From Gemmatimonadota bacterium (GTDB lineage Bacteria; Gemmatimonadota; Gemmatimonadetes; Palauibacterales; Palauibacteraceae), in NCBI GenBank assembly GCA_049668445.1, contig JBATJK010000235.1, positions 15,714 through 79,713 of the forward strand: a stretch of 64,000 nt of DNA. The letters run 5' to 3'. Shown piece by piece: positions 23,798 through 43,165 of the stretch. The notes beneath the pieces are model-generated. The model was not told the origin of the DNA. It worked only from the letters and a program-made list of their open reading frames with translations, and ran no database searches. Within the stretch, counting starts at the first letter, position 1, and every line of letters starts with the position of its first letter. A program made the position numbers and the translations under genes.

Positions 23798-24435
23798 ACC
23801 CCGCCTACTGGCGCGACCGGCGACGCCTGATCGAGGGCCTCCAGGCGGGCGGAGTCAACGACCTTGCCATACTGCACGCCTTCGACGCCATCCCCAGGCA
23901 CATGTTCGTTCCGGATGCGGTCCGTCACCGATCGTACGACGATGTCGCCCTCCCGCTTGGCCATGGGCAGACCATTTCGCGGCCTGGAGCGCACGCTCTG
24001 CACCTGGGACTGGCCGGCCTCACGGGAGAGGAGAAGGTGCTCGAGATCGGTACAGGCTCGGGATACCAGACAGCTCTCCTGAGCCAGCTGGCAGCGCACG
24101 TGTACTCGGTGGAGACGGTTCAGGAACTCGCGGATCTCGCCGAGGCCCGCTTGCGGGACCTGGGTGTCGAGAACGTGACCACCCGGGCGGGGGATGGGAG
24201 CGCCGGCTGGCCGGAGTTCGCTCCCTACGACGTGATCCTGTGCGGGGCCGCGGCTCCTCGAGTTCCGCAGCCTCTGATCGACCAACTCGTCCCCGGCGGC
24301 CGACTGATCATCCCGGTGGGGGACGATTCCGGACAGCGCCTTGTCCGTGTCACCCTGGAGACGGACGGCCGGCTCAGTGAGGAGACCGTGGACAGCGCCC
24401 GCTTCGTACCACTCACAGGGGAAGAGGGATGGTGA
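23779..24435 (+). CDS. pcm: Protein-L-isoaspartate O-methyltransferase
   Basis: AIPRHMFVPD, VLEIGTGSGYQTALLSQLA (SAM motif I), and PYDVILCGAAAPRVPQPLIDQLVPGGRLIIPVG match Pcm. surE-pcm pairing is conserved. Apparent TTG start overlapping surE. Confidence 0.85.
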   Translation: MDAGRIDPAYWRDRRRLIEGLQAGGVNDLAILHAFDAIPRHMFVPDAVRHRSYDDVALPLGHGQTISRPGAHALHLGLAGLTGEEKVLEIGTGSGYQTALLSQLAAHVYSVETVQELADLAEARLRDLGVENVTTRAGDGSAGWPEFAPYDVILCGAAAPRVPQPLIDQLVPGGRLIIPVGDDSGQRLVRVTLETDGRLSEETVDSARFVPLTGEEGW

Positions 24436-24466
24436 TACTGGAGACAACCCTTTCCGAGAATGGCCG

Positions 24467-25138
24467 ATGACCGAAATCCTGATCGAATACGTTCAGCTCG
24501 GCGCCGAACTCGGCCGCACCTGGGGCCCTCTCATCGTGCTCGTGCTGATGGCGGTCGAGAGTTCGTTCATACCCTTCCCGTCGGAAGTGGTCATGATCCC
24601 GGCCGGATTCATGGCCGCGCGAGGAGAGTTTCTCCCACCGGATCCGGTGGCGGGACTCGTCGTAGCCGTGGTCGCGGGGATCCTCGGCTCACTCCTCGGA
24701 GCGTTCCTGAACTACGGGCTTTCCTTGAAGCTCGGGAGACCCTTCCTCTATCGCTACGGGCGCTACTTCTTCCTCTCCGCCGCAAGCCTGGAGCGCGCCG
24801 AGGAGTTGTTCAGGCGCCACGGTGAGATCACGACCTTCGTCTGCCGCCTCATCCCGGCAATCCGCCAGCTCATCTCCATTCCGGCGGGTCTCTCCCGGAT
24901 GCGTTTCGGACGGTTCGCGCTCTTCACCGGACTCGGAGCGGGGATCTGGGTGATCATCCTCAGCATCGCCGGATTCGCGCTGGGGAAGGGCACGCGCGAT
25001 ATGAGTTACGAGGAACTGGTCCCCGCCGGTGAGGCCATGATCCGGGGGAACCTCGGATGGATCTTCTGGGGTCTCGTGCTCGTCATCGTCATGTACATAT
25101 GGGTACATCGCCGGGTCATGCACGGAGGCTCGCATTGA
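24467..25138 (+). CDS. DedA/TVP38-family membrane protein
   Basis: ATG at 24467 with a GGAG-like RBS. Polytopic. DedA core (ESSFIPFPSEVVMIPAGF...FVCRLIPAIRQLISIPAGLSRM). Confidence 0.85.
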   Translation: MTEILIEYVQLGAELGRTWGPLIVLVLMAVESSFIPFPSEVVMIPAGFMAARGEFLPPDPVAGLVVAVVAGILGSLLGAFLNYGLSLKLGRPFLYRYGRYFFLSAASLERAEELFRRHGEITTFVCRLIPAIRQLISIPAGLSRMRFGRFALFTGLGAGIWVIILSIAGFALGKGTRDMSYEELVPAGEAMIRGNLGWIFWGLVLVIVMYIWVHRRVMHGGSH

Positions 25139-25328: not shown

Positions 25329-26150
25329 ATGGCTAAGCAAATAGCCCGCGAGAAGCGGCCGGGACATATCGATACCGAAGATCACGTCACCGAGCGGGTC
25401 CTCGAGGCCGCGGCGTGGGCGGAAAACCACCGCCGGGCGGTGATCGCTGGAGGAATCGCGCTGGCACTCGTGGTCGCCGCGGCGTTCTACTACCAGGACT
25501 ACCGGAGCAAGCTCGTCGACAGGGCATCCGTGCGACTCCAGGAGATCCAGATGTCGGCCCAGTCAGCCGACATGGAAACGATTCGATCGGAGTTGCGGAT
25601 CTTCATCGATCAGTACTCCAGCACCCCCTACGCCAGCCAGGCACGCGTGGCGCTGGGTGACCTGGAACTGCGCAGGGACAGTCTCGGCCTGGCGATCCAG
25701 GCGCTCCAGCCGGTCGCCGATCTGGGCGCCGACAACCCTCTGTCGTTCACGGCCATGAAGATGATCGCCGCGGCGTATGAGCAGGGTGGCGAGACGGATC
25801 AGGCCATCCAGTGGTACGAGCGGATTTCCTCGGGCGCCATGTTCGACTACCAGCGCCATCTGGGCATGGCGGAGCAGGCCCGTCTCCATACGGCCGCCGG
25901 GCGCTATTCCGATGCCGAATCCCTGTACGAGCAGCTCGTAGCGGAGGCCGAGGAAGACCCGGCCGGGCAGCAGGTGTACGGAGTCAGACTCGGAGAAGTG
26001 CGCGCGCTGGCCCAGTTCGGTGCCGCACCGCCGGCTGCGCTTCCAACCGTGCAGTTGGATCCTCCCGCGGCGAGCGAGGCGGACGAGTCGAGCGAGGCGG
26101 GGGCGGACGAAGGAATCCCGGCGGAAGAGGCACCGGAAGAGGGAGAGTAG
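25329..26150 (+). CDS. Membrane-anchored TPR-like protein (YfgM/UPF0070-like architecture) with acidic C-terminal tail
   Basis: ATG at 25329. Charged N-terminus (MAKQIAREKRPGHIDTEDH). One TM helix (IAGGIALALVVAAAFYY). TPR-like helical region. C-terminal low-complexity acidic tail (EADESSEAGADEGIPAEEAPEEGE). Upstream part of ORF 25164.. rejected. Confidence 0.65.
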   Translation: MAKQIAREKRPGHIDTEDHVTERVLEAAAWAENHRRAVIAGGIALALVVAAAFYYQDYRSKLVDRASVRLQEIQMSAQSADMETIRSELRIFIDQYSSTPYASQARVALGDLELRRDSLGLAIQALQPVADLGADNPLSFTAMKMIAAAYEQGGETDQAIQWYERISSGAMFDYQRHLGMAEQARLHTAAGRYSDAESLYEQLVAEAEEDPAGQQVYGVRLGEVRALAQFGAAPPAALPTVQLDPPAASEADESSEAGADEGIPAEEAPEEGE

Positions 26151-26271
26151 ATAGATCTTCGCAGTTGAGGGCTGCGGGGGGCCTTGCAGGTCGTGAGCGC
26201 CACCCGCCCCTTAATGGCGCATAAGATATCTTATGTAAACTAGCGATCTGCGGTATGTACCCTGCCGACAC

Positions 26272-27033
26272 TCAGAGGCGTCCGAACAGAGAGCGGAAGC
26301 GCAGGGCCCACACTCTCCACACCGCCTCGCGTACGATGGCTCCCGACATCTTGCTCTCGCCTTCCGTGCGGTCCACGAACACGATGGGTACCTCCCCGAC
26401 GCGGAACCCCTTCTTCCAGGCCCGGAAGTCCATCTCGATCTGGAACGTGTAGCCGGTCGATCCCACCTTCGAGAAGTCGATCGCTTCCAGCACCTCGCGG
26501 CGGAAACACTTGAACCCTGCCGTGGCATCCGACAGGGGGAGTCCTGTCACCACACGGGCGTACTTGTTCGCGAACCAGGACAACAGGAGGCGGCTCATGG
26601 GCCAGTTGATGACGTTGACCCCGCTCACGTAGCGAGAGCCGATCACCAGGTCGAGGTCTCCCTCGGCGGCCTCGAGCAGCGCGGGAAGATACTTCGGGTC
26701 GTGCGAGTGATCCGAGTCCATTTCCAGAAGGAACTCGTATCCGTTCTCCAGGCCCCAGGTGAAACCCCTCAAATAGGCGCTCCCGAGCCCCTGCTTGCCC
26801 TCCCGATGTACCACGTGAACGCGAGGGTTGTCGGACGCCATCAGATCGGCGACTTCACCCGTACCGTCAGGTGACGCGTCGTCCACGACCAGCACGTCGA
26901 TCCTCGGGTCCTGATCCAGCACCACGGGGACGATCGAGGCCAGGTTGCCGGCCTCGTTGTAGGTCGGCATGACGACGAGCGCCCTGCCCCGTCCGATCGG
27001 CTCCGCTCCCGGAACGTTCGGATTCTCGTTCAA
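26272..27033 (-). CDS. GT2 polyprenyl-monophosphate sugar synthase (DPM1/Ppm1-like, soluble type)
   Basis: ALVVMPTYNEAGNL...VLVVDDASPDGT...DSDHSHDP (DxD/ED motifs of DPM synthases). No C-terminal TM helices. Probable TTG start at 27033-27031 overlapping the stop of the upstream gene (TTGA); an internal ATG start (26970) is an alternative. Confidence 0.78.
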   Translation of the reverse strand: MNENPNVPGAEPIGRGRALVVMPTYNEAGNLASIVPVVLDQDPRIDVLVVDDASPDGTGEVADLMASDNPRVHVVHREGKQGLGSAYLRGFTWGLENGYEFLLEMDSDHSHDPKYLPALLEAAEGDLDLVIGSRYVSGVNVINWPMSRLLLSWFANKYARVVTGLPLSDATAGFKCFRREVLEAIDFSKVGSTGYTFQIEMDFRAWKKGFRVGEVPIVFVDRTEGESKMSGAIVREAVWRVWALRFRSLFGRL

Positions 27034-27989
27034 GCCACTCTCTCCTCTTCCTCTACCGTTCTGGGCCAGGCCAGCACCAGAGCCAGCGCGGCGAGTTCGG
27101 TCACCAGCATCCATATCCGGGCCATGATCGCGACCGCAGCCGCCACACCCACCGCCAGCCCCACCAGGTCGGCGAGCAATGCCGTCATCGCGCCCTCGCG
27201 CACGACCAGACCGCCCGGGGCCACCAGCACAAGGTAGCCGACCACATAGCTGGCCGCGAAAATGCCCGTAAGTACCGGCAGATGGCTGACTTCAACTGCG
27301 ATACCGACACCTCGCAAGAGCAGGAAGAGTCCGACCCCATACAGGCACCAGGCCAGGAGCATCCCGGCGGCGGCCCGCACGATGTGTCCCGAGTCCAGCT
27401 CCACCCTCAGGTCGTCTTCTCCGAGCCAGCGGCCAAGCCGACTCGCGACCCAGCGAATCACACGAGGGTGCAATCCCAGCACGAGGATCCCCCCGAGCGT
27501 GATCACGACAGGTACCCAGCTCCCCTCGGCTCCAGCCCACGCGACGCCGATGGTGGATGCGGCGACGGCGCCCCCCGTGACCAGCGTGACAATCTGGAAA
27601 GCCAGCGCGGAGACGAGAGCCGCGGCTCCCGAGTCGCCACGTCCCTTCATGTACGCGGCCAGGCCTCCCAGCTGCCAGACCTTTCCCGGTATGTAACGGC
27701 CGAAGTTGGTGACCACCCAGACTCTGACGGCTTCGGTCCGCCGGACGTTGCCCCCGGTCCCCCTGAAGAGGCTGGCCCAGACACTGCCCATGAGCAGAAG
27801 GTTCGCGACACCAACCACGATCGCCAGCACCAGAAGCCAGGGGCTGAAAGACCAGTCGAAAGCGCGGGTCGCGGCCATGACCTCGTCCAGCGAGGTCCAC
27901 TGCCCTCTCAGCAGCATCCCCACGAAGGTGAGTGCGACGACAAGAAACACCACCGTCACCACGCGACGTGGCTCGCGACCCGAGGTCAC
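27030..27989 (-). CDS. Flippase-like polytopic membrane protein (lysyl-PG-synthase TM-region / TIGR00374-like)
   Basis: ~320 aa, 8 predicted TM helices. GK-rich loop NFGRYIPGKVWQLGGLAAY, typical of the UPF0104 / LPG synthase TM domain. GTG start at 27989-27987 overlapping the YfhO stop (GTGA). Confidence 0.65.
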   Translation of the reverse strand: MTSGREPRRVVTVVFLVVALTFVGMLLRGQWTSLDEVMAATRAFDWSFSPWLLVLAIVVGVANLLLMGSVWASLFRGTGGNVRRTEAVRVWVVTNFGRYIPGKVWQLGGLAAYMKGRGDSGAAALVSALAFQIVTLVTGGAVAASTIGVAWAGAEGSWVPVVITLGGILVLGLHPRVIRWVASRLGRWLGEDDLRVELDSGHIVRAAAGMLLAWCLYGVGLFLLLRGVGIAVEVSHLPVLTGIFAASYVVGYLVLVAPGGLVVREGAMTALLADLVGLAVGVAAAVAIMARIWMLVTELAALALVLAWPRTVEEEERVA

Positions 27990-30316
27990 GATTCCTCCGG
28001 CTCCTTCCCTGACCGGCTCATGCCGGGGAATCGCCAGGGCAAGAACCCGATCAGGAGCCACACGAGAGCGCCGGCCGCCGAGATCCCAGAGACCATGAAC
28101 CCGATCCGGAACTCGGCCGCGGAATAGCGGAAGGTCACCTCGTGAGTGCCCGCCGGCACGACGACGCCCCGGAACGCAGTATTGGTCCGCAGGATCTCGG
28201 TGGGCTGTCCGTCGATTCGGGCCCGCCAGGCCGGATAGTAGACTTCACTGAGAAACAGGAGCCCGGCCTGGCTGGCCTCCACCTGCAGGACGAGCTCGTT
28301 GGGCTCGTATCGCATGATCGTCGCCACCCCCGAGCCCGCCGCCGGAGCCACGTCACCCTCTACGATGGCAAGCTCGAGCGGATCGGCCTCGAGAATCCGG
28401 CGCAGGGCCTCAGCCGTGTCCGGTGTGGCCTCGACTCTTCGCGGGAAGAACGCGTGCGGAACGTCGCCCAGCACCCGGTAAGCCGAGCCTCGCGACCCCG
28501 TAGCCTCCAGAGCGAGAATCTCGGCTGACACGCCTGGCCCGGCCACGATGAAGCCCACATCGAGCAGCCCCAGGGCCGCCACCGTGCCCACGTTCTGCAT
28601 CCCCAATCCGCCCGTGAAGCGCTCGTACCATTCGAGTCGGAACTTCTGGATGCCGGTAACCGTGGGGATTCCATGGACGCTGAGCTCACTGGGCCCGTAG
28701 CCCGCCATTCCCGCCGGAGGGAAGGCCCTCTCGGCCAGGACGAGTTCCGAGCGCAGGTGCTCGATCACCGTATCGGAGGGAAAGACGGTCTCTGGATCCA
28801 CCGTCCGGAGGTAGCGGTCGTTCACGCGCCAGCCATCAGCGACCATGACAAGGAGGAGGAGGGCAACCACCCACTCCGGAGCGCGACGCATTCCCACCCC
28901 CCAGGCCGCGCCCAGGCCGCCTCCGACGCCCAGCAGGAGCATCCAGCCGTTCATCCGGAGCGGTCCCCCTGGATCCGCCGCCGCGGATCGGGTCCAGCCC
29001 ACCGGATACCATGCCGTTCGCACCCAGCGGAGCAGGCCCTCGGGTGAGAAGGCCGCGGCAAGACCGAGAAGGAGCAACGGCGAGGCCAGCAAGAAGACCC
29101 AGACCCACGGGATGCTGCCCACTCCCCTGCGAGCCTCCAGCACCTTCTGCCACCCCAGGCCGGCCAGGAGCGCGATCATGAGGCTCGCGGGACCCAGCAT
29201 CATCGATGGTGCTCGGAATTGCTTGACGAACGGAATGACCGAGTACGCCAGTCGATGCAGCGGCGTGGCCGCGCCCAGGGCGAAGAGAACGCAGGTGAGA
29301 GCGGTAATCGCGACGAAGGTCACCCTGCGATCGCTGCGGATCGCTGTCAGGGCGACGAGGGCCAGGGCCACTGGCACGGCGCCCAGGTACTCGGTGTGGA
29401 GCTTGAACGGGTTGCTTCCCCAATATGTCCCGAGCGATCCGATCAGGTCCGGAAGGATGAGGGCGGAAACCTCCTGCGGGGGAAGCGCCCACGACGATGC
29501 GAAGGCGTAGCCCGACTCCCCTGCCCCACCGCGCACGGCCACGTCCAGGATCTGGACGGTGGGCAGGAGCTGAGCCAACCCGACCAGACCCGCCACCGCG
29601 AAGCCCAGCGCCCACATGCCGACCAGGGGAACCGCTGTTCGCGCCCCCTCGTTCCTGGCTCGCTGCCCGATCCTCATCGCCGCGTACAGCGTGAGAGCGA
29701 GCGAGGAGTAGTACATGAGCTGGATATGGGGCGTAAAGATCTGCAGGGCGATCACGAGGCCAAGGGCGACGAACCACCGAGTGCGGCTCGACTCGAGGCC
29801 CCGTTCGAGACACATGAACGCCAGTGGAATCAGCGCCATCGCGAACATGCGGCCGTCGTGTCCCCCGTACAGTGTCGACACGACGAACCCCGTAAGCATG
29901 AACGCCAATCCGGTCACCGCTGACGGCATGCGCTCCAGTCGAATCGACCGGGCTGCCAGGTAGGCGAAAACACCCGAAAGGAACGTGTGCAATACGAATG
30001 TCCAGCCGATGGCCCGGTGCAGGGGCATGATCAGGTAGAGAAGACTCGTCGGATAGAACACCGGGCCGGGCAGGATCGCGAGGTAGGGTTGTCCCCCATA
30101 CACAAACGGATTCCACAACGGAAACCCTCGGCCGGACCGAATTTCGCCTACTCCGAACGAGCGCAGCTGGAAGCCCTCGTTGATCATGTCGTCGCCGTAC
30201 AGCATCGCGCCGGGATCGAAGATGAACCCGCGGTAGAACACCAGGGTCAGAAATCCGGCGACTGCAGCCGCAATCCATACGAATTGCCGTGTGCTCCAGC
30301 GCCCACCGCCGGTCAT
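27986..30316 (-). CDS. YfhO-family membrane glycosyltransferase (GT-C fold)
   Basis: ~776 aa polytopic. YfhO-like N-terminal region (FYRGFIFDPGAMLYGDDMINEGFQLRSF...FPLWNPFVYGGQPYLAILPG...) and a C-terminal periplasmic domain. ATG at 30316-30314 overlaps the stop of the upstream methyltransferase (ATGA). The longer ORF to 30439 is an over-extension. Confidence 0.72.
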   Translation of the reverse strand: MTGGGRWSTRQFVWIAAAVAGFLTLVFYRGFIFDPGAMLYGDDMINEGFQLRSFGVGEIRSGRGFPLWNPFVYGGQPYLAILPGPVFYPTSLLYLIMPLHRAIGWTFVLHTFLSGVFAYLAARSIRLERMPSAVTGLAFMLTGFVVSTLYGGHDGRMFAMALIPLAFMCLERGLESSRTRWFVALGLVIALQIFTPHIQLMYYSSLALTLYAAMRIGQRARNEGARTAVPLVGMWALGFAVAGLVGLAQLLPTVQILDVAVRGGAGESGYAFASSWALPPQEVSALILPDLIGSLGTYWGSNPFKLHTEYLGAVPVALALVALTAIRSDRRVTFVAITALTCVLFALGAATPLHRLAYSVIPFVKQFRAPSMMLGPASLMIALLAGLGWQKVLEARRGVGSIPWVWVFLLASPLLLLGLAAAFSPEGLLRWVRTAWYPVGWTRSAAADPGGPLRMNGWMLLLGVGGGLGAAWGVGMRRAPEWVVALLLLVMVADGWRVNDRYLRTVDPETVFPSDTVIEHLRSELVLAERAFPPAGMAGYGPSELSVHGIPTVTGIQKFRLEWYERFTGGLGMQNVGTVAALGLLDVGFIVAGPGVSAEILALEATGSRGSAYRVLGDVPHAFFPRRVEATPDTAEALRRILEADPLELAIVEGDVAPAAGSGVATIMRYEPNELVLQVEASQAGLLFLSEVYYPAWRARIDGQPTEILRTNTAFRGVVVPAGTHEVTFRYSAAEFRIGFMVSGISAAGALVWLLIGFLPWRFPGMSRSGKEPEES

Positions 30317-31077
30317 TCGCTGATCTCCAGGGCGTCGGACGGACGTGCCGGCCGCTCGAGGAAGAAGAACCACTGCGGCGATCCGGTTCTGAGGAAGCTC
30401 CGGCGCACCCCAGCAGGCATTCTGCGCATGGCTCCCCACACGGCACCCCAGCGCTCGCCCCAGGCCATGCGGATCAGGTCGTCAATGGCACGCTCTGTCA
30501 CGTCGTGGATGATAAAGCCCGCTGATCGCATGAGTCTCGTCAAGGGTCGATAGGTGAGGAACCGGATGTCGTCGTACGACCGCCCCCGGCGCGTGATGCG
30601 AAGGTAGGCCCCGGCTGACCCCTTCGGTAGCCAACTGAGAAACGGCAGCCGGTAGTGAGGCTCCACGATCGCGAAGCGGCTGCCCGCCGTAACGTAGGCC
30701 CGCCCACCCGGCCTCAGTACCCGATAGGTCTCGCGGAACAGTTCTCCCGCATCGGGAACGTGCTCGTACAGGTGGTTCAACATCACGAAGTCCAGGCTCT
30801 CCGAGGCGAAGGGGATGCGCAGAACATCTCCCCGGACCATGCGTTCCTTCTCGACTATGAATTCGCTGTCTATTTCCAGTCCATATATCGGGTTACCAGA
30901 CTCCACTTCAAGTGCCTTGCGAATAATTCCGGTTCCCGCGCCGAGGTCCGCCGCGCGGGCCGAGCCCGTCAGGTAGGGCGCGCACAGGTGGGCGATGACA
31001 CGGGCCTTTCGGAGGCGTCCCTCCCGATAGGCCTCGGTGGCCGTGAACCTTTCGTATCGATCAGTCCCGGCGCTCAC
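30313..31077 (-). CDS. Class I SAM-dependent methyltransferase
   Basis: Motif I DLGAGTGI; acidic post-I; Methyltransf_11/23-like (VMLNHLYEHVPD...VLRPGGRAYV). GTG start at 31077 is 14 nt after the GT4 stop. The longer ORF to 31191 would overlap GT4 by 130 nt. Confidence 0.72.
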   Translation of the reverse strand: MSAGTDRYERFTATEAYREGRLRKARVIAHLCAPYLTGSARAADLGAGTGIIRKALEVESGNPIYGLEIDSEFIVEKERMVRGDVLRIPFASESLDFVMLNHLYEHVPDAGELFRETYRVLRPGGRAYVTAGSRFAIVEPHYRLPFLSWLPKGSAGAYLRITRRGRSYDDIRFLTYRPLTRLMRSAGFIIHDVTERAIDDLIRMAWGERWGAVWGAMRRMPAGVRRSFLRTGSPQWFFFLERPARPSDALEISE

Positions 31078-32281
31078 GGCGTGCCTCCACGGCGGACGAA
31101 TACACGGCAGTCGTCTCCTCCAGGATTCGCTCCCACGAGAAGCGTGCCTCGGCTCGCCGTTTGCCCTGAGCCGCCACGCGGCGGGCTTCATCCGGATCGG
31201 AGATCACATCGAGAATTCGCCGCGCGAGGACCTCCGAATCCCCTGGATCCGATAACCACCCGGTCTCCCCGTCGATCACGATGTCGGGAATGCCCCCTGC
31301 TCGAGAGGCGACGACGGGGCGCTCATACGCCAGCGCCTCCAGAAGGACGACGCCAAGGCCCTCGGTGTCGCCACGCGAATCCACCACCGCGGGAAGGACG
31401 AAGATGTCCGACTCCGCATACTCCTGCGCGAGCCGCTCCGCCGTCACGAATCCGCGCATGTGGACATGATCCGCGACGCCCTCCAGCGCCGCCGTCCGCC
31501 GCACGCTGTCCTCTCGATTCCCCGAGCCGACGATCACCAGTTCCGCGTCCCGCGTGTGCCGGAGTCTGGCGAGGGCTCGAACCAGCACTTCGACACCTTT
31601 CCTCTCCACGAGCCGGCCGACGAACAGCAGCCGGACGGGATCAGTGGCACTGGAGAGGGCCGGGCGAATGCGGTCCGGTGACACGTCCGGGATCACCGCT
31701 GCATAGGGGACAACGGCCACGGAGCGATCCCACAGGCCCTGTACGGACCTCGCCGTCGAGGTGGAGATGGCCGTCACCGCGTCCGCGGACCGGATGCTCC
31801 ACTCGAGAAACGGACGGAGCCACGGGAGGCGCTGATCTACCCAATTCACCTCCACGCTGTAGAAGCTGCAGACCATCGCGGTCCGTCCCCTCGACGCCCG
31901 GCGCATGGAGGCCCCGAACAGGGCATGCGGCATGGGCCAGTGAACGTGCACCAGATCTGGTCCACCGCGCCCCAGGTCCGCGGCCGCGGCGCACCCTGCC
32001 GCGAGGTAGGACGGCACGAGCGCCGCCGATGCGGGGCGGTCGCGGATCCGATCAGGGACGGCCTGATCGTGTGTGAGTGTTTCCAGGAAACGGGGCGCGT
32101 ACCGGAAACGTCGCACGGGAACGCCTGAGGATTCCTCGTCCGGTCCACCTTTGTACGCGGGCGCCAGGACGCTGGCATCGATTCCAGCCTGGCGCTGACG
32201 TCGGACCAGCTCGACCAGCCAGGGGGTGATCGGATCATCACGATGCCTGGGAAAGGCCGTGGCTACATGAATGACCTTCAT
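31061..32281 (-). CDS. Glycosyltransferase family 4 (retaining, GT-B)
   Basis: 406 aa. N-terminal Glyco_transf_4-like domain (MKVIHVATAFP...) and C-terminal Glycos_transf_1 (EX7E: GDTEGLGVVLLEALAYERPVVASRAGGIPDIV). ATGA overlap with the upstream GT39 gene. Confidence 0.85.
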   Translation of the reverse strand: MKVIHVATAFPRHRDDPITPWLVELVRRQRQAGIDASVLAPAYKGGPDEESSGVPVRRFRYAPRFLETLTHDQAVPDRIRDRPASAALVPSYLAAGCAAAADLGRGGPDLVHVHWPMPHALFGASMRRASRGRTAMVCSFYSVEVNWVDQRLPWLRPFLEWSIRSADAVTAISTSTARSVQGLWDRSVAVVPYAAVIPDVSPDRIRPALSSATDPVRLLFVGRLVERKGVEVLVRALARLRHTRDAELVIVGSGNREDSVRRTAALEGVADHVHMRGFVTAERLAQEYAESDIFVLPAVVDSRGDTEGLGVVLLEALAYERPVVASRAGGIPDIVIDGETGWLSDPGDSEVLARRILDVISDPDEARRVAAQGKRRAEARFSWERILEETTAVYSSAVEARRERRD

Positions 32282-33882
32282 GGTTCGCCGGGCGCTGAAG
32301 CGGTCCGCGGGGCCGATAGCAGACGCAGGAGCGCCGTGCCTTCTTCTCCTCCCACCGTGTGTACGACCTCGAAGCGCTCCAGGTTGGCCGCGATGGCCGG
32401 AATCAGGTACATGGCCGTGGTGGCGCTCAGCCGGTCGACCAGCACGTAGTCCGCCCCCATCTCCTCGAGCCCCCGCAGCACGACGGAAGGATCCTGGGAG
32501 TAGGGATACAGGTCTCCCTGTCGACGAGAAAACAGGTAGAAGGTGGCGGGGCTGCGGTTGGCGATGACCGACCCCTCAGGGGTGTTCTCCGAGGCCCACC
32601 AGCCCATGGCATAGAACTCCCGGTACTGTGGACGGTCACACGGATGACCGTCCCGGTACGCGAACTGGCAGGCTACCCGGTACGACACGACAGATCCTGC
32701 CGAGTACAGGGCCATCGTGGCGACTCCGGCCACGACGAGTCCTATCGTCGCGTACCCGATCCTCCGCCCCATGGATTCGACGCCAGCCGCCGCTCCCGCC
32801 GCGCCGAACACAACGAGGAGTGGCAGGATGGGAAGGAGAAACCGACGGTCGGTCCACACCGGCGGCCACAGCAGGATGAGACCGACGTAGAACGCCACGA
32901 GGAGGTGGGCCACACTCACCCGATTGGCGGCCGACCGAAGCCAGCCGTAAAGGACCAGCGAACTCAAGAAGACTCCGGCGATGGCCGTGCCAGTGACCGT
33001 CGCCCTCCGAACGGTTGGGAACCCGAATGAGCCAGGCAACTCTGAGCTGACGTAGCGCCAGAGGTTCGTCGCCGCCCGCGCCGGAAAGTCCATCAAGCTG
33101 ACGGTTCCAGCGGCCGGGACGTAGGGGTTCTGCTGGATGAGCTGCTGCAGGTAACCCGGCTGCGAGGGCTGGGCCACGTGCTGATAGACGGCCCAACCTG
33201 CGACACAGAAGAGGGCCACCAGCAAGGCCGCCACGGCCCGCCGGCGATCCCGCGACAGGAGGGCCCACACCACCAGGGTGAGAAGCACGGACAGCCCGGC
33301 CGTGCGGGTGAAGAAGGCCGCGGCCGCAGCTGCCAGGGCCGCGGCTCCGACACGTCTGTCTCCCAGGGTGGCCGCGACGACGGCCAACAGGAGGAAAGTG
33401 AACGCCGCTTCGGACAACACCCGGTGGGAGAAATCCAACAGAACCGGCGCCATGGCAAACAGGCCGGCCGCCACGAACGCGGCCCGCTTTCCGACGAGCG
33501 ATTCGGCGATTCGATAGGTCAGCCACACCGAACCCGCGGCGAACGCCATCGAGGCCGCCTTGAACAGCTGCAGGCCACCGAACCAGCCTGCGATCGCCAG
33601 GATCAGGGGGTAGCCAGGCGGGAACTTCGCGTGCAGCGGCGAACCCGGCAGCTGGATGTCCCGGAAGCCCATCCCGCTGCGCAGCGACTCGCCGAGGACC
33701 ATGTAATGGCCCGCATCCGCCCCCGGGAAGAGCGTCGGCTCGAACACCAGTACGGCCAGGAGCACGTGGGCGGCGACGAGCACCGTTGGTGCGAGGATTC
33801 CCTCCGCTCCCGAGAGAGACGCAGCGTCCTCAGCCTTGAGATCCTTAGAGTCGGGCCCTCCGGCGGTGCCCCGGCCGATCAC
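32278..33882 (-). CDS. GT-C glycosyltransferase, family 39/83 type (PMT / ArnT-like; polyprenyl-phosphate-sugar dependent)
   Basis: 534 aa, ~11 TM helices then a ~150-aa C-terminal soluble domain. N-terminal loop with acidic/aromatic residues (HYMVLGESLRSGMGFRDIQLPGSPLHAKFPPGYPLILA), typical of PMT_2/ArnT. ATGA overlap with the GT2 upstream. Confidence 0.72.
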   Translation of the reverse strand: MIGRGTAGGPDSKDLKAEDAASLSGAEGILAPTVLVAAHVLLAVLVFEPTLFPGADAGHYMVLGESLRSGMGFRDIQLPGSPLHAKFPPGYPLILAIAGWFGGLQLFKAASMAFAAGSVWLTYRIAESLVGKRAAFVAAGLFAMAPVLLDFSHRVLSEAAFTFLLLAVVAATLGDRRVGAAALAAAAAAFFTRTAGLSVLLTLVVWALLSRDRRRAVAALLVALFCVAGWAVYQHVAQPSQPGYLQQLIQQNPYVPAAGTVSLMDFPARAATNLWRYVSSELPGSFGFPTVRRATVTGTAIAGVFLSSLVLYGWLRSAANRVSVAHLLVAFYVGLILLWPPVWTDRRFLLPILPLLVVFGAAGAAAGVESMGRRIGYATIGLVVAGVATMALYSAGSVVSYRVACQFAYRDGHPCDRPQYREFYAMGWWASENTPEGSVIANRSPATFYLFSRRQGDLYPYSQDPSVVLRGLEEMGADYVLVDRLSATTAMYLIPAIAANLERFEVVHTVGGEEGTALLRLLSAPRTASAPGEP

Positions 33883-34844
33883 CTTCTGAGCTCTCGGCGG
33901 AGATCCTCCACCTCGGCCCGGAGCCCCGCGATCAGTTCAGCCAGCAAACCTGCCACGAACAGCAAGCCTCCCAGAAGAACCAGAAAGACGACAAGGGTGA
34001 GAAGCGGTCTGAACCCCGTGCCCAACGCGTAGCGCAGAATCAGGGCCACGATTCCAACGAGCACCCCCACTCCAGCCACGAACAGACCGGTGAGTCCGAA
34101 GAAGAGCATCGGTTTGCGGCTGAACACCAGCTGGAACCACACGGAGATCAGGTCGAGCAGCCCGACCACCACCCTGCCCTGCCCGCTGTACTTGGACACG
34201 CCGTGGCGCCTGGGAAGCAGATCGATGTCGATCTCGCCGATCCGAAATCCCCGATCGTGCGCCAGGACAACGAGATAGCGGTGCCAATCCTCGCGGAGGT
34301 GAATCTCGTCCACCACCTCCCGCCGGAACGCCTTCATGGAGTTCAGGTCACGGACCGGCACCCGGAAGATCATGCGTGACAGGCCATTGTAGGCCCCCGA
34401 CACCATGCGCTTCGGGTAGTCTCCCACCTTGCGCCCCACCACCACATCGTGGTCCTCATCCAGCGCATCCAGGAAGCGGGGGATCTCGTCCGTGGCGTGC
34501 TGGAGATCGGCATCGAACAGCACGAATACGGGCGCGTCGGTGGACCTCACGGCCGTCACCAGGGCCGCCGTCTTCCCCCTGTTCACGCGATGTCGCAGGA
34601 AGAGGGTCCGATCCTCGATGCCCGAAGCGCTGGCCGCCGTTCGTGCCGCCTCGAGCGTCCCATCAGTCGAACCGTCGTCGACCAGGACGATTCTACCGTT
34701 CAGCTGAAAGCGTGAGAACGTCCCCGCCAGATCCTGAAACAGATCCGGCATGTTCTCCGCTTCGTTATAGGCCGGAACGATTACCGAGAAGCGTATGGAG
34801 GTCGGCGGGAGGGGGTCGGCGGGAGACAACCCGGACTCGGTCAT
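33879..34844 (-). CDS. GT2 polyprenyl-phosphate sugar synthase, GtrB/ArnC/CsbB type (two C-terminal TM helices)
   Basis: FSVIVPAYNEAENM...IVLVDDGSTDGT...DADLQH (DxD...D). C-terminal TM pair (MLFFGLTGLFVAGVGVLV...LLGGLLFVAGLL). ATG at 34844-34842 overlaps the rpoN stop 34843-34841 (ATGA). Confidence 0.85.
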   Translation of the reverse strand: MTESGLSPADPLPPTSIRFSVIVPAYNEAENMPDLFQDLAGTFSRFQLNGRIVLVDDGSTDGTLEAARTAASASGIEDRTLFLRHRVNRGKTAALVTAVRSTDAPVFVLFDADLQHATDEIPRFLDALDEDHDVVVGRKVGDYPKRMVSGAYNGLSRMIFRVPVRDLNSMKAFRREVVDEIHLREDWHRYLVVLAHDRGFRIGEIDIDLLPRRHGVSKYSGQGRVVVGLLDLISVWFQLVFSRKPMLFFGLTGLFVAGVGVLVGIVALILRYALGTGFRPLLTLVVFLVLLGGLLFVAGLLAELIAGLRAEVEDLRRELRR

Positions 34845-36280
34845 ACTCGCTTACGCATCCTCGCCGAGAGGATTCCGAGTTGATCCCTGTACTTCGCGAC
34901 TGTCCGCCGCGCGATCTGGACGCCCTCCTGCTTCAGGACGTCCACGATGGCCTGGTCGGTCAGGGGTTTCTTCGGATCTTCGTCGGCCACCAGCTTCTGA
35001 ATCCGGGCCCGGATACCCCGGGCGGATACGTCCTCGCCGTAGTCAGTCGACAGCCCGGAGGAGAAGAAGAACTTCAGAGGGAGCACCCCGCGTGGCGTCT
35101 GCACGAACTTGTCGTTCGTCACTCGCGACACGGTGGACTCGTGCATGTCGATGTGCTCCGCCACCTCGCGAAGGGTCAGGGGCCTCAGGTGCTCCACGCC
35201 CTTCTCGAAGAACTCGCGCTGACGGTCTACGATGAAGCCCATGACCTTGAGCATCGTCTGCCGTCGCTGCTCGATCGCCTGGATCATCCACTGAGCGCTG
35301 TTGAGCTTCTTGGAGATGAAGGCCTTGTTCTCTCCCTGGTACTGGTTCCGGTCCTGGGCCACCTCCCGGTAGGATCGCGAGAGCTTGAGGCGCGGCAACG
35401 ACGAGTCGTTGTGAAACACGAAGTACTCGCCATCGACCTTCTCGACCGCCAGGTCGGGAATGACGTAGTTGTCGCTCATGTCCGCGTACTTCAGACCGGG
35501 CTTCGGATCGAGCTTGGCGATCGAATCGGCAGCGCTCTGGACGTCCAGGGGAGAGATCCCGTGTTCCTTGGAAAGCTCGCTCCACCTGTGGTTCACCAGC
35601 TGCTCGAAATGGTCCTGGATGATTCGATAGGCCAGGCTATCGTCTTCCTTCCGCTCCCGCAGCTGGATCAGAAGCGTCTCGCGTAGATTCCGGGCACCGA
35701 CGCCCGAAGGATAGAAGCCCTGAATGACCCGGAGAACCGCTTCCGCCTCCTCGAGCGTGAAGGGCTCCATCTCCGCCCACAGTTCGGGCTCGCTCTCGGC
35801 CAACCACGTGTTGGCCGCTTCGACGACTTCCTCGAGGCTGCAGGCGAGAAACCCCTCGCGATCGATGTTGCCGATGATCTCCTCACCAAGGGCGAACTCA
35901 CGCGGTCCGAGCGTGAGGAGATTGAGCTGCTCGCGCAGGTGCTCCCAGAGATCGGGCGGAGCAGCCGGAGTGGGCATGTAGTGCTCTTTGTCTTCGAACT
36001 GGCTCCGTCTACCGCCTGCATCGAAGCCGTTCAGGAGGATCTCTTCCCAATCGACCTCGTCCTCGTCTTCTTCCTCTTCCTGCTTCTCTTCAGGAAGTTC
36101 CTCTTCCGCCATCTCGGTGAACTCGAGGAACGGATTGACCAGCACCTCCAGCTTCAGGTGCGCCTGCAGGTCCAGCAGAGGCATGTAGAGCAGATCCATC
36201 GCCTGGTAAAGGCGGGGATTGATCTTCAGCTCCTGCCGCATTCCGAGGCTCTGCGAGAGCCCTCGTCTAAAATCCGCCAT
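34841..36280 (-). CDS. rpoN: RNA polymerase sigma-54 factor
   Basis: 479 aa. Q/L-rich region I (MRQELKINPRLYQAMDLL), acidic region II, and C-terminal RpoN box (ARRTVAKYRDQLGI). Downstream of lptB as in most Gram-negatives. Confidence 0.9.
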   Translation of the reverse strand: MADFRRGLSQSLGMRQELKINPRLYQAMDLLYMPLLDLQAHLKLEVLVNPFLEFTEMAEEELPEEKQEEEEDEDEVDWEEILLNGFDAGGRRSQFEDKEHYMPTPAAPPDLWEHLREQLNLLTLGPREFALGEEIIGNIDREGFLACSLEEVVEAANTWLAESEPELWAEMEPFTLEEAEAVLRVIQGFYPSGVGARNLRETLLIQLRERKEDDSLAYRIIQDHFEQLVNHRWSELSKEHGISPLDVQSAADSIAKLDPKPGLKYADMSDNYVIPDLAVEKVDGEYFVFHNDSSLPRLKLSRSYREVAQDRNQYQGENKAFISKKLNSAQWMIQAIEQRRQTMLKVMGFIVDRQREFFEKGVEHLRPLTLREVAEHIDMHESTVSRVTNDKFVQTPRGVLPLKFFFSSGLSTDYGEDVSARGIRARIQKLVADEDPKKPLTDQAIVDVLKQEGVQIARRTVAKYRDQLGILSARMRKRV

Positions 36281-36413
36281 CTGCTACTCGACCACTCCGT
36301 TCAATCCGGTTCTGCGGCCGCACGGGCCGCACGCTGCATGTAAGATAGCGTACGCGGTACACACGGCACACCCCTTGCAGGACGGGCCGAGCGCCGCACC
36401 CCTGGTGTGGAGT

Positions 36414-37145
36414 TTAGAGCTCGAAATCGAGCCCCAGATACATCTTGCGGGCTTCCGGATCGTCAACGAGGGTTTGAGCCGGTCCCTCGATATGAATCTG
36501 GCCGTTGAACATCAGGTAGGCCCGGTCCGTGATCGAGAGAGTCTCGCGCACGTTGTGGTCCGTGATCAGCACGCCGAGGCCACGTTCCCTGAGCTCTGCG
36601 ACGATGCGCTGGATGTCATCCACCGCAATGGGGTCAACGCCGGCGAATGGCTCGTCGAGCAGCATGAACTTGGGGCGAGTGACCAGGGCCCGTGTGATCT
36701 CGAGTCTGCGTCGCTCACCACCTGACAACGAATCCGCCTTGCTCTTCCGCAGGTGGCCGATCGACAACTCGCCGAGCAGCTCGTCCAACCGGCTCTGACG
36801 CTCCGCGCGCGTCATGTCGAGCGTCTGCAGAATGGCCATGACATTCTGCTCGACCGTGAGACGCCGGAAGATCGAGGGCTCCTGGGAGAGGTAGCCGATA
36901 CCAGCTCGGGCACGGCGATACATGGGGACCCTGGTCAGTTCCTGCTGGTCGAGGTACACCCGGCCCGCGTTTGCGCCGAGCAATCCCACGATCATGTAGA
37001 AGGTGGTGGTCTTCCCCGCCCCGTTGGGTCCAAGCAACCCTACGATTTCACCCTGGTGGACCTCGAGGTCGACACCATCCACCACACGCCGTTTGCCGAA
37101 CGCCTTCACCAGCCCCTCGGCCCTCAAGACGCTCCTGGTGCTCAA
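36414..37145 (-). CDS. lptB: LPS export ABC transporter ATP-binding protein LptB
   Basis: Walker [10 protein letters not shown], signature [11 protein letters not shown], Walker B LLDEP. 243 aa. Adjacent to lptA/lptC and rpoN. Confidence 0.9.
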
Positions 37146-38509
37146 CCGCCTTCTCCTTCCGTTGAGGGCTCGAGGTAGATCCCTATGGCATCCCTGGCGA
37201 TCACCTCGGACGGCTCCCCGTCCTCGAACAGCACCTCGATCCGGTTCCCGAGCAGGTAGTTACGGGATGGCTCCTCGGACCGAATGGAATCACGCACGGA
37301 GGCGTAGAACGACCTCGCGCTGCCGAGGGCCATGATACGTTCGGGCTTGGGGTTCGACTCCGCCGGTGCGAGAAGTGAGTCGGCGGGAGCGGGACTGAAG
37401 AAGGCCCGGATCGTGTCCCCCGTGAGCCAGTTCGAACCGGGATCGAGGTCCTTGGCCGCCTCGACCAATGTCTCTCCAGGTATGTGCGGCACGGTCTCCA
37501 CGGAAGAGGCATCTCCCACCGAGGCGATGGAATCGATCCGGCCTGCCGTCAGGAAAAACTCGATCGAGTCACCCGCGAGTTGAAAGCTACCCGAGACAGC
37601 GATCGACCGTCCCTCGCCGAATGCCCACAAGCGCTCGACTTCACCTCCGCTGAACGCGGCCGTCACCAGATCGGACTGGAGCTCGAAGTCCTCGCCGGTC
37701 GCCGCCGCCTCACCGAACGACTCTACCTCTCGAAGCTCGTCGTCGGCGAAGCGAGCCACGACGCTGTCCCCCGTGAGCTCGAATCCCTCCCCCCGAATGA
37801 TCGGGCGCCCGTAAAGGACTCCTACCCCGCTCGCATCGAAGCGCGCACTCTCGGCGGTCGCGTCCAGGTCCGACCTGTGGATCTCGACGTTCCCGCGCGC
37901 GAATGCCTGCTCTTCTCCCTGGAATTCAGCCTCGTCGGCGTCCACGAGGAAGGGCTCCGTCCCCGGCCCGCCGGTCGGCAACTCCATGTGCGGCCTTCCG
38001 GTGGCGATCGTGCGGTTTCCCTGAAACGGAGTGCGCATGAAGTCGACCCGCGGCCCCTCCAGCGTCGCACCGGATCGCAGGCGCTCGAGCCGCACATCAC
38101 CCACCGCGATGACACGGTCGGTCAATCCGTAGTATGTCACCGTGTCCGCATCCAGCACCCGCGTCGTGTCCCTGTAGCGAACACTCCCGATCATCCGGGC
38201 TTCAGAGCGGTGTTCCAGGTGCACCGCGCTATCTCCGGTCATGGAAGCATCGCCACACTGGCCGATGACCAGCCCACCACCAAGGTGCATGGCATAACGG
38301 CCCTCGGAACCGGGGATCGCCAGCATGTTGCTTCTGGGCTGATCAGCGGACCCGGACGCCGCGACCACCCGGACCCTGAGCTGGCAGCTTGGAGCGCCCT
38401 GCGCCTCGGCCGACCCGGGAGCTGCCAGCGCCGCCAGAATGACGAACGCGGAGCCGGCACAGAGAGAACGCATGGACGTGAAACCCGTTGGCTGCAGGCT
38501 CGTGGTCAT
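37142..38509 (-). CDS. lptA: LptA/OstA-family periplasmic LPS transport protein (unusually long, ~440-455 aa)
   Basis: Signal peptide ([24 protein letters not shown]; internal ATG at 38473 is an alternative start). Repeated OstA-like beta-jellyroll segments. Its stop overlaps the lptB start, and ATGA overlaps the lptC stop at 38509. Confidence 0.72.
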
Positions 38510-39102
38510 TCAGGCAGCGTGCGCCGGCCAGCGGTGGGGTCTCCTTCCGACACGAAGCTGGGATTGAGGCTCTGAACGTTCTCGAGCTGCGCGTCGCTGA
38601 CGAAACTGGCCCCCCTCATCTCCAGACCTGGCCGGTACAATACGAAAGCCGTGTCCCCGTAGAGAGAATCCGCCGCCGCGACGTAACGAAGCCTCTCGGT
38701 CACCAGGCGCTTGGACCCCACGGCCTCGGTGACCTCGACCCCGCCTCTGACCTCGACGTCGCCCGTTTCGAACTGGTACTCACCCTCCCGCCCGGTCAGC
38801 ACCCCCTCTTCGAGTCCCGTACTGCCGTAGAACGTAATGACCAGATTGCGCAACTCGAGCAGGCCCTCCTCCTGGAAACTGAAGGCCGTGTCTGCCACCA
38901 GTATCCCATTCCGCACGCCTGCTCTGGTGAGGTTCATCTCGACCCCGACCAGCACCTGATCGGCCTCGAGACCCAGCAACGTGTCCGAGGCCAAGGGCTT
39001 CTGGCTCTCCTTCTCGCAGCCGCCCATTGCCGGAAGACAGATCAGAACGAGGGCAGCCCCGCTCAACCTGGCCCTGGCGGGCCGACTCCATGGCCTGCTC
39101 AC
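38506..39102 (-). CDS. lptC: LptC-like periplasmic LPS transport protein (lipoprotein form)
   Basis: 198 aa. Lipobox LVLICLPAMGGC. LptC-like beta-jellyroll. ATGA overlap with the kdsD stop. Confidence 0.68.
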   Translation of the reverse strand: MSRPWSRPARARLSGAALVLICLPAMGGCEKESQKPLASDTLLGLEADQVLVGVEMNLTRAGVRNGILVADTAFSFQEEGLLELRNLVITFYGSTGLEEGVLTGREGEYQFETGDVEVRGGVEVTEAVGSKRLVTERLRYVAAADSLYGDTAFVLYRPGLEMRGASFVSDAQLENVQSLNPSFVSEGDPTAGRRTLPE

Positions 39103-40094: not shown

Positions 40095-40661
40095 TCTTGC
40101 TCGACCTCCAGTGCTCAAAGCACTCAGCAACGTACCCTTCGACGAGCGAATCCCATTCCCCTCGCGCCCTGAGAAGGGCCTCGGTGAACTCTCGAACAGC
40201 ACCCGCCCCCCCACACACGTCACCAACCCAGTCCGCGGCCTCCTTGACCTCGGGCACGGCGTTGGCCACAGCCGCTGGTAGCCCTACCTCACGAAGCACC
40301 GGAAGGTCCGCCAGATCGTCAGCGAGGAATGCCGCCTCGTCCCAACCCGCACCGGCACGTCGAAGGATCCCGTCTACGGTTGCGAGCTTGCCGAACGGTG
40401 AGACCTGGTGGATCTCCTTGATGCCCAGAGTCTCGGCTCGCTTGCGCACGGGCAGCGATACCTTGCCCGAGACGATGGCCACCTCCAGACCCGCCCGACT
40501 GAGCATGTGAATGCCGAGCCCGTCATGCACGTGAAACCGCCGTGCCTCGGTCACCCGATCCTCGTCCGCGGACACGTACAGTCCACCATCGGTCATCACG
40601 CCATCCGCATCCAGGAGGACCACTCGGACCCTGCGACCCTGCTCCGGGGACACGGAACTCA

Positions 40662-40665
<4 letters not shown>
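40087..40665 (-). CDS. kdsC: 3-deoxy-D-manno-octulosonate 8-phosphate phosphatase (HAD)
   Basis: HAD motif I VLLDADGVMTDG. KdsC core (FHVHDGLGIHMLSRAGLEVAIVSG). ATG at 40665 overlaps the kdsA stop (ATGA). The long upstream ORF extension is rejected. Confidence 0.8.

Positions 40666-43165
<2,500 letters not shown>

Follow-up and report, generated by a model that had tools for sequence, protein, structure and literature searches.

Which task does an operon serve that encodes two different glycosyltransferases of the membrane-embedded GT-C class together with two different polyprenyl-phosphate-sugar synthases, and how unusual is this combination in a Gram-negative bacterium that makes lipopolysaccharide (LPS)? 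The question is raised by a stretch of 64,000 nucleotides from a Gemmatimonadota bacterium (assembly GCA_049668445.1, contig JBATJK010000235.1, positions 15,714 to 79,713), which is referred to as the window in the following. The initial annotation of this DNA had described the locus as two textbook three-component systems side by side, a Firmicute-type system of CsbB/GtrB, a flippase and YfhO and an actinobacterial-type system of Ppm1 and a protein mannosyltransferase (PMT), and had judged their combination to be unexpected in a Gram-negative organism. Its central observation stands, since two different GT-C enzymes and two different synthases are encoded in one operon, and both GT-C open reading frames (ORFs) lie on the minus strand with the positions and lengths given there. 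Probably the locus serves envelope glycosylation as an operon that a Gemmatimonadota clade has inherited vertically, that is co-transcribed with rpoN and that encodes two periplasmic modules which depend on polyprenyl-phosphate-linked sugars. It is a lineage-typical version of a widespread surface-decoration system and not a surprising Gram-positive mix.

Organization of the locus

The genes stand on the minus strand in the unbroken order pyrG, kdsA, kdsC-like, kdsD, lptC, a gene for a 455-amino-acid (aa) protein, lptB, rpoN, GT2a, the 534-aa GT-C gene, GT4, an S-adenosylmethionine (SAM)-dependent methyltransferase gene, YfhO, UPF0104 and GT2b. The features are as follows:

34841-36280, minus strand: rpoN (sigma-54), head of the translationally coupled string; NCBIfam TIGR02395 with 434 bits and three Pfam sigma-54 domains
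33879-34844, minus strand: GT2a, putative polyprenyl-phosphate glycosyltransferase of the ArnC/GtrB/CsbB type, 321 aa; Pfam Glycos_transf_2, E 1.7e-25
32278-33882, minus strand: predicted GT-C glycosyltransferase, 534 aa, PMT_2-like; AlphaFold model and invariant first-loop residues D56 and Y60
31061-32281, minus strand: GT4 (GT-B fold), predicted cytoplasmic glycosyltransferase using nucleotide sugars; Pfam Glycos_transf_1, E 6e-42
30313-31077, minus strand: class I SAM-dependent methyltransferase, accessory; Pfam Methyltransf_11, E 4e-17
27986-30316, minus strand: YfhO-family GT-C by profile match, 776 aa from its ATG (mechanical ORF to 30439, 817 aa); Pfam YfhO and hhalign
27030-27989, minus strand: membrane protein of the UPF0104 / LPG_synthase_TM family ("PplT", MprF-flippase-domain family); Pfam PF03706
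26272-27033, minus strand: GT2b, predicted soluble DPM1/Ppm1-like synthase, 253 aa, last gene of the string (mechanical ORF to 27114); Pfam GT2, E 7.7e-31
36414-43159, minus strand: upstream context with pyrG, kdsA, kdsC-like, kdsD (SIS+CBS), lptC, the 455-aa protein at the lptA position and lptB; Pfam matches

From rpoN to GT2b the junctions read ATGA (the rpoN stop overlapping the GT2a start), GTGA, ATGA, a GTG 14 nt before TGA, ATGA, GTGA and TTGA, so that one of them is a 17-nt overlap rather than a start/stop tetranucleotide. As every junction overlaps, these eight genes form one translationally coupled string. The likely start of the methyltransferase gene is the GTG at 31077, which is preceded by a Shine-Dalgarno-like GGAGG (the mechanical ORF extends to 31191), that of the UPF0104 gene is a GTG overlapping the stop codon of YfhO, at 27989, and that of GT2b is the TTG at 27033. 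For these three genes we preferred the overlapping starts with Shine-Dalgarno-like sequences over the longest ORFs; they also match the onset of homology in related loci.

Conservation across Gemmatimonadota

Related loci were collected by a genome scan with the 534-aa family. The scan gave 80 loci, nearly all titled Gemmatimonadota and including Palauibacter and Benthicola, and their gene order was read by tblastn of the window proteins wherever the contig was long enough. The order lptB-rpoN-GT2a-GTC534-GT4-(MT)-YfhO-UPF0104-GT2b, with MT for the methyltransferase, is kept in these loci even where the 534-aa protein is only 35% identical, and the upstream block pyrG-kdsA-kdsD-lptC is collinear in most of them. 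YfhO and UPF0104 are neighbours in every locus where both were found. Variation concerns the methyltransferase gene, which is often absent or relocated, the GT4 gene, which several Palauibacter-type loci place between GT2a and the 534-aa gene, and GT2b, which is 60-93% identical where it was found downstream of the module and lies a few kb away in some loci. The window has a G+C content of ~65%, and its base composition shows no break at the glycosylation locus. Because base composition is uniform and synteny is deep, the locus is a vertically inherited core block of a Gemmatimonadota clade and neither an island nor an acquired combination; horizontal acquisition was rejected on these grounds. 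A tblastn search of a plasmid collection with the 534-aa protein returned only one weak match, from Gemmatirosa.

Some loci depart from this picture. Four Palauibacter-type loci (L016, L041, L052 and L056) have the order GTC534, UPF0104 and then a YfhO gene whose product is only 30-32% identical, with GT2b ~5 kb further on; their sole GT4 match is ~30% identical and lies on the opposite strand. This order suggests paralogue replacement within the module. Another locus (L055, CP070670.1) contains GT2a, GTC534 and GT4, and a stretch of 10 kb around them yielded no YfhO, UPF0104 or GT2b. The two modules may thus be separable; however, ORFs look fragmented in this sequence (rpoN and GT4 are split), so that it may be an assembly artefact, and no conclusion was based on it. 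A contig of 2.6 kb titled 'Acidimicrobiia bacterium' (L006, JBPCTX010000011.1) encodes RpoN, GT2a and GT-C proteins 97%, 87% and 80% identical to those of the window and is probably mis-binned. Finally, distant homologues of the 534-aa protein (~30% identity; P0089 and P0091; L089:10001-11698 and L090:1614-3326) are encoded directly after an AnmK gene (PF03702) and not after rpoN. A SIS-domain gene precedes AnmK in L089, and one source of these distant homologues names its metagenome-assembled genome (MAG) Longimicrobiales. The proximity of AnmK may point to peptidoglycan recycling. Since their context differs, these homologues were set aside as evidence on the window locus.

The 776-amino-acid protein belongs to a divergent YfhO branch

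AlphaFold models of both GT-C proteins were confident (pLDDT 89.7 and 88.1; pTM 0.89 for both), and the best structural matches to both are exclusively GT-C glycosyltransferases. Both proteins have hundreds of homologues, almost only from Gemmatimonadota MAGs, and a public entry under the name "YfhO family protein [Gemmatimonadota bacterium]" shares 100% identity with the 776-aa protein. Together with the collinear neighbours in the 80 loci, the homologues, the models and the GT-C-only matches establish that both ORFs are real conserved genes and not chance ORFs.

The initial annotation had called the 776-aa protein YfhO, with a generic DUF2079 membrane protein as the alternative, and our comparisons bear out the YfhO assignment. 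The Pfam YfhO model (PF09586) is matched with 51.3 bits (cut-off 28.5) and by all 49 orthologues examined, with the match in the window protein confined to residues 707-784 of the 817-aa ORF (profile positions 757-835). The N-terminal 500 residues taken alone reach E 0.041 against this model and are collinear with the profile. Full-length homology emerged from profile-to-profile comparison with genes that carry the YfhO annotation in the plasmid collection. Against an alignment of six reference sequences (Listeria, Priestia, B. thuringiensis, L. reuteri, Bacteroides and Bernardetia), hhalign gave a probability of 99.8% and E 4.9e-28 over 696 columns, query 14-759 aligning with template 14-879; against the Listeria YfhO alone only the C-terminal 100 residues align. 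The Priestia and B. thuringiensis reference loci are canonical GT2-GtrA-YfhO triads. The Listeria monocytogenes reference gene, whose product matches Pfam YfhO over its full length (403 bits), adjoins galU and the dTDP-rhamnose genes rfbA/rfbC/rfbB, and from the EGD-e gene order we take this locus to be the Lmo1079-type wall-teichoic-acid locus.

Conserved residues and architecture agree with this placement. Asp43 of the window protein (YGDDMINEGFQLR) aligns with Asp52, which is invariant in the reference set; among the 49 orthologues this first-loop position is Asp in 39 and Glu in 10. PLWNP, GHDGR, E282, D290 and E309 are likewise invariant or nearly so. In the predicted model a membrane domain reaches from residue 1 to ~500 and is followed by a beta-rich periplasmic domain (~500-731) and a last membrane helix (734-758). 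B. subtilis YfhO has been described with 13 membrane helices, the last of which follows a loop of 389 aa (PMC5836110). Outside the phylum, the closest full-length relative found comes from the alphaproteobacterium Microvirga, where it is annotated as a "YfhO family protein" (hhalign 99.9% over 665 columns); it also matches Pfam YfhO only at its C-terminus. A search of the PDB sequences with the 776-aa family profile gave no match. By profile comparison, then, the protein counts as a true member of the YfhO family of GT-C enzymes, although of a divergent type that occurs in diderms.

The 534-amino-acid protein is an ArnT-like GT-C of the PMT_2 superfamily

The predicted model of the 534-aa protein shows a GT-C fold with an ArnT/PMT-like membrane core of ~13 helices and a C-terminal periplasmic alpha/beta domain of ~110 aa. 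Structural similarity to ALG12, AglB and ArnT is equally high and so does not discriminate. Sequence profiles point to the PMT_2 superfamily: the window protein scores 20.3 bits against PMT_2 (PF13231), below the cut-off of 26.1, is also sub-threshold for DUF2079 and does not match PMT (PF02366), and PMT_2 is matched by 31 of 43 orthologues at E<=0.01 (best 2.9e-10), PMT by 3 and GT22 by 3. Among the PDB sequences the family profile recovered only yeast Pmt1 (E 0.012 over 70 residues), and hhalign detected no relationship between the family and E. coli ArnT (probability 0.04%).

Asp56 and Tyr60, which lie directly past membrane helix 1, are invariant in the family, and Asp75, His84, Lys86, Glu158, Asp345 and Arg347 are nearly so. 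The residue next to D56 is Asn or Ala, so that the loop carries a single Asp instead of a DE/DD dyad, and from its position this Asp would be the counterpart of the catalytic Asp of ArnT/PMT enzymes. The earlier assignment to families GT39/83 is thus not contradicted by the first loop, which keeps an invariant acidic residue, but membership of these families is not demonstrated, because PMT_2 stays below threshold and E. coli ArnT is not matched by hhalign. We class the protein as a GT-C enzyme within the PMT_2 superfamily whose modelled layout resembles ArnT, and we assign it to neither GT39 nor GT83.

The two synthases and their pairing

GT2a consists of a cytoplasmic GT-A domain with a DADLQ(H) motif and a two-helix C-terminal membrane anchor. 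Among solved structures it matches ArnC (E 1.8e-23, residues 18-312), the P. furiosus dolichol-phosphate-mannose (DPM) synthase PfDPMS (1.5e-18) and GtrB (1e-12). BLASTP against E. coli ArnC aligned 304 aa at 26% identity, with DADLQ in register and the membrane tail covered. From these similarities GT2a is best classed as a polyprenyl-phosphate glycosyltransferase of the ArnC/GtrB/CsbB type, though not as an ArnC orthologue. GT2b is related most clearly to the P. furiosus DPM synthase 5mlz: its residues 18-244 align with 25-246 of that enzyme (E 1.5e-32), DSDHSHDPKYLP stands opposite DADLQHPPEVIP, and the DSDHSH motif is aligned. It carries no membrane anchor and ends where the catalytic domain ends, as in DPM1/Ppm1-type enzymes. 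These features mark GT2b as a soluble polyprenyl-phosphate hexose synthase of the DPM1/Ppm1 type, the hexose being probably mannose. All NCBIfam equivalog models for such synthases remained far under their cut-offs (ArnC 97 against 529 bits, PgfS 75 against 500, AglJ 63-70 against 325), and the sugars of GT2a and GT2b are therefore not defined by them.

In the window and in the related loci GT2a adjoins the 534-aa GT-C (module A), and GT2b adjoins UPF0104 and YfhO (module B). Adjacency thus supports the claim that each GT-C enzyme has its own synthase, except that both GT2 genes lie just outside 27986-33882, the interval to which the claim had been tied. The pairing is the reverse of the textbook CsbB-YfhO and Ppm1-PMT pairs; systems of this kind usually combine their parts freely. 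The labels of the initial annotation do not fit, since under any assignment they conflict with either homology or adjacency. The YfhO protein adjoins a DPM1/Ppm1-like GT2 and a flippase-like protein that is UPF0104 and not GtrA, which does not fit a Firmicute-type CsbB/GtrB system, and the 534-aa enzyme adjoins an ArnC/GtrB/CsbB-like GT2, which does not fit an actinobacterial-type Ppm1-PMT system.

A candidate flippase of the UPF0104 family

The UPF0104 protein matches Pfam PF03706 with 46.3 bits (cut-off 33.4) over residues 41-319 (profile 9-295 of 302), and no match was found among the PDB sequences. Family membership makes it a candidate flippase for a lipid-linked sugar or a glycolipid, which would belong to the MprF flippase-domain family and not to GtrA. 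GT2b, UPF0104 and YfhO are adjacent with overlapping genes, and module B contains all three parts of a three-component system, with UPF0104 as the candidate flippase. A small GtrA-like ORF has no room in the string because all junctions overlap.

The MprF-type flippase domain is widespread and often fused to GT-A or GT-B glycosyltransferases (bioRxiv 10.1101/2022.03.11.483950). In Pseudomonas aeruginosa, GpgS (GT4) and GpgF (UPF0104) make and probably flip glucosaminyl-phosphatidylglycerol (PMC12713373), and in archaea a conserved neighbourhood combines an AglD-like GT2, UPF0104 and a PMT/STT3-like GT-C (PMC5898192). Of these proteins, only MprF has experimental support as a flippase; for GpgF and for the C-terminal domain of AglD such activity is a prediction (bioRxiv 10.1101/2022.03.11.483950; PMC12713373; PMC5898192).

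Proposed function and alternatives

The mechanism that we infer from the gene set, folds, families, conserved loop residues, operon structure and synteny would run as follows. In module A, GT2a would charge undecaprenyl-phosphate with a sugar at the cytoplasmic face, and the 534-aa GT-C would move the flipped sugar onto a periplasmic acceptor, with Asp56 as a likely catalytic or donor-binding residue. In module B, GT2b would make a polyprenyl-phosphate hexose, probably with mannose, the UPF0104/MprF-type protein, the only candidate translocase in the locus, may carry it across the membrane, and the YfhO-family GT-C would perform a second periplasmic transfer while its beta-rich periplasmic domain probably holds the acceptor glycan. 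The polyprenyl-phosphate sugars made by GT2a and GT2b would differ from each other, and both GT-C enzymes would use the conserved Asp of the first loop for transfer. GT4 and the optional methyltransferase would work in the cytoplasm, with either the acceptor precursor or a sugar as their substrate.

Our best guess for the acceptor, which we offer tentatively, is a lipid-linked glycan of the envelope, be it LPS (lipid A-core or O-chain) or another one. LPS is favoured because the module is permanently linked to the Lpt genes and the genes for 3-deoxy-D-manno-oct-2-ulosonic acid (Kdo), and because ArnC/ArnT-type systems provide a Gram-negative precedent for glycosylation of lipid A/core. It is possible, but on the whole unlikely, that the clade makes an envelope glycoconjugate that is still undescribed and is glycosylated twice, be it a lipid A-core with decorations or a lipoglycan that faces the periplasm of a diderm; its synthesis would be hard-wired to rpoN and the Lpt/Kdo genes, with UPF0104 translocating a polyprenyl-phosphate sugar or a glycolipid. 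If this were true, the system would be the first bacterial one of three components to rely on the UPF0104/MprF flippase family, and a divergent YfhO enzyme of 'Gram-negative type' would be supplied in this way.

Several points weigh against an LPS-directed operon of two modules. Scanning positions 26000-37200 with consensus sequences revealed neither a convincing promoter nor a convincing terminator. Module A lacks a separate flippase gene in the locus, and hhalign detected no relationship between the 534-aa family and E. coli ArnT. No acceptor-specific feature was found in the locus, and its linkage to lpt and rpoN could reflect co-expression only. Moreover, the UPF0104 proteins with experimental support handle phospholipids or glycolipids and not polyprenyl-phosphate sugars (bioRxiv 10.1101/2022.03.11.483950; PMC12713373), and YfhO enzymes of known function act on teichoic acids or proteins and not on LPS (PMC8035078; PMC12041528).

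The alternative that survives best, although we hold it to be unlikely, is a single pathway for a glycolipid or lipoglycan resembling phosphatidylinositol mannosides (PIM) and lipomannan (LM), in which GT4 glycosylates a membrane lipid at the cytoplasmic face, UPF0104 flips it and the two GT-C enzymes extend it in the periplasm with the two polyprenyl-phosphate sugars of GT2a and GT2b. The nearest solved relative of GT4 is the glycolipid mannosyltransferase PimB' of C. glutamicum (E 1e-25), followed by BshA, MshA and PimA, and there is a weak match to the model of an N-acetylglucosaminyl-phosphatidylglycerol synthase. GT4 and UPF0104 form a characterised glycolipid-making pair in GpgS and GpgF (PMC12713373), UPF0104 represents the MprF lipid-flippase domain, GT2b is Ppm1/DPM1-like, and all genes belong to one translationally coupled string. 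The GT4 similarity is generic, however: BshA, MshA, glycogen synthase and exopolysaccharide enzymes score alike, and all NCBIfam matches are far under the equivalog cut-offs (73 bits against 480 for the phosphatidylglycerol model). GT4 adjoins module A whereas UPF0104 is part of module B, in the window as in the loci of the same order, and the four Palauibacter-type loci described above keep the other genes and yet have that distant GT4 match on the opposite strand as their only one. A search of one paper library also turned up no such lipoglycan in Gemmatimonadota, and no description of this locus or of surface glycans in the phylum.

Quite improbable is that one or both modules serve periplasmic protein O-glycosylation, with a hexose transferred onto Ser/Thr-rich regions of envelope proteins. 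Precedents are the actinobacterial Ppm1/Pmt system and the streptococcal pairs GtrB/PgtC2 and PgfS/PgfM1, of which the YfhO-family members PgtC2 and PgfM1 are protein O-glycosyltransferases acting on Ser/Thr-rich regions (PMC12041528). In the window, GT2a matches the PgfS model, the YfhO C-terminus matches PgfM1, and GT2b is DPM1-like. The PgfS and PgfM1 scores are far under their cut-offs, though, and structural similarity to ALG12, AglB and ArnT is equally high. In addition, the 534-aa protein has no DE dyad, most of its orthologues do not match PF02366, and the conserved block contains no candidate gene for a Ser/Thr-rich acceptor.

A literal juxtaposition of a Firmicute-type CsbB/GtrA/YfhO and an actinobacterial Ppm1/PMT system, unusual for a Gram-negative and possibly acquired, is very hard to believe: although the resemblances exist at family level (YfhO, PMT_2-like, GtrB-like, DPM1-like), the pairing by adjacency is reversed, the flippase-like protein is of the UPF0104 type whereas the canonical Firmicute triads retrieved are GT2-GtrA-YfhO, the divergent YfhO is of a type shared with an alphaproteobacterium and only its C-terminus meets the Pfam profile, which was built on Firmicutes, vertical conservation and native base composition mark the locus, and an LPS-bearing diderm is not expected to make teichoic acid.

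The operon of two envelope-glycosylation modules is thus the reading that we prefer, and the surprise expressed by the initial annotation was overstated, because YfhO proteins and three-component systems are common in Gram-negatives. The YfhO family is annotated in Microvirga, Bacteroides, Parabacteroides and Bernardetia, three-component periplasmic glycosylation is widespread in Gram-negative bacteria (PMC11127046; PMC8035078), and the B. subtilis genome holds three GT-A/GT-C pairs from different GT-C families (PMC8035078). No expectation is overturned, as modules of lipid-linked sugars and GT-C enzymes are a general bacterial route to periplasmic glycosylation. What is mildly new is that two modules are fixed to rpoN and lpt in one clade-wide operon, that the flippase candidate is of the UPF0104 type and that the YfhO branch is detected only by its C-terminus. 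With this locus, a defined set of surface-glycosylation genes that is typical of the phylum becomes available for Gemmatimonadota, an abundant and mostly uncultured lineage. Furthermore, the YfhO-type GT-C has a divergent diderm branch of which current profiles recognise only the C-terminus, and in the locus one could ask, for bacteria, whether proteins of the UPF0104/MprF type are able to serve GT-C systems.

Neighbouring genes

Three further genes near the operon were noted. A DedA/VTT membrane protein is encoded at 24341-25138 on the plus strand (Pfam VTT_dom, E 1.7e-21), ~1 kb past the operon end and convergent to it. The DedA/VTT family is implicated in undecaprenyl-phosphate recycling. 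This gene was rejected as a conserved operon partner, being present in only the five closest related loci. At 37142-38509 (minus strand), between lptC and lptB, the 455-aa protein at the lptA position has a weak LptD_N/LptA match as its sole Pfam match (E 0.017, 34 residues), and it is kept in related loci with 26-88% identity. LptA of E. coli is much shorter (~185 aa). Between pyrG and a gene for a XerC/D-type recombinase (45404-46357) lies a 509-aa ORF (43362-44891, minus strand) whose only match is a sub-threshold, bactofilin-like one (E 0.0013).

Comparison with known systems

The ArnC/ArnT aminoarabinose system of E. coli, Salmonella and Cupriavidus, with the related systems of a GT2 and an ArnT-like enzyme, differs from the window locus in several respects. 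Sequence homology to E. coli ArnT was not detected for the 534-aa protein, and the locus contains neither the sugar-modifying genes ArnA/B/D nor the ArnE/F flippase. The GpgS-GpgD-GpgF system of P. aeruginosa resembles it in combining GT4 and UPF0104 in one Gram-negative operon (PMC12713373), although it has no GT-C or GT2 and includes a deacetylase that the window locus lacks. With the actinobacterial Ppm1/Pmt system and the pathway of PIM, LM and lipoarabinomannan (LAM) the locus shares the soluble type of GT2b, a GT4 nearest to PimB' and GT-C enzymes predicted to use polyprenyl-phosphate sugars. However, GT2b of the window adjoins YfhO and not the PMT_2-like enzyme, and no phosphatidylinositol-related genes were seen.

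In the streptococcal systems GtrB/PgtC2 and PgfS/PgfM1, too, a synthase of the GtrB type and a GT-C of the YfhO family work together in extracytoplasmic glycosylation (PMC12041528). Their acceptors are Ser/Thr-rich disordered regions of Gram-positive proteins, none of which is evident at the window locus. The CsbB/GtlA-GtcA-YfhO system of B. subtilis, S. aureus and L. monocytogenes, which glycosylates teichoic acids, has the same YfhO layout, including the multi-helix membrane domain, the large extracytoplasmic domain before the last helix and the first-loop Asp, and follows the same logic of a synthase, a putative flippase and a GT-C in one locus. In the window, by contrast, the GT2 partner of YfhO is soluble and DPM1-like, the flippase candidate is of the UPF0104 type, and the N-terminal half of YfhO is too divergent for Pfam. 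The partnership of a CsbB-type GT2 with GtrA, absent beside the window YfhO, is a trait of the characterised YfhO systems and not of the YfhO family.

A further counterpart is found in archaea, where Makarova et al. (2015, PMC5898192) described the neighbourhood of an AglD-like GT2, UPF0104 (arCOG00899) and a PMT/STT3-like GT-C. There the predicted function is N-glycosylation and GT2 and UPF0104 are often fused, whereas the window locus is bacterial, keeps the genes separate and has a GT-C of the YfhO type. The three parts of the archaeal neighbourhood are nevertheless the same as those of module B.

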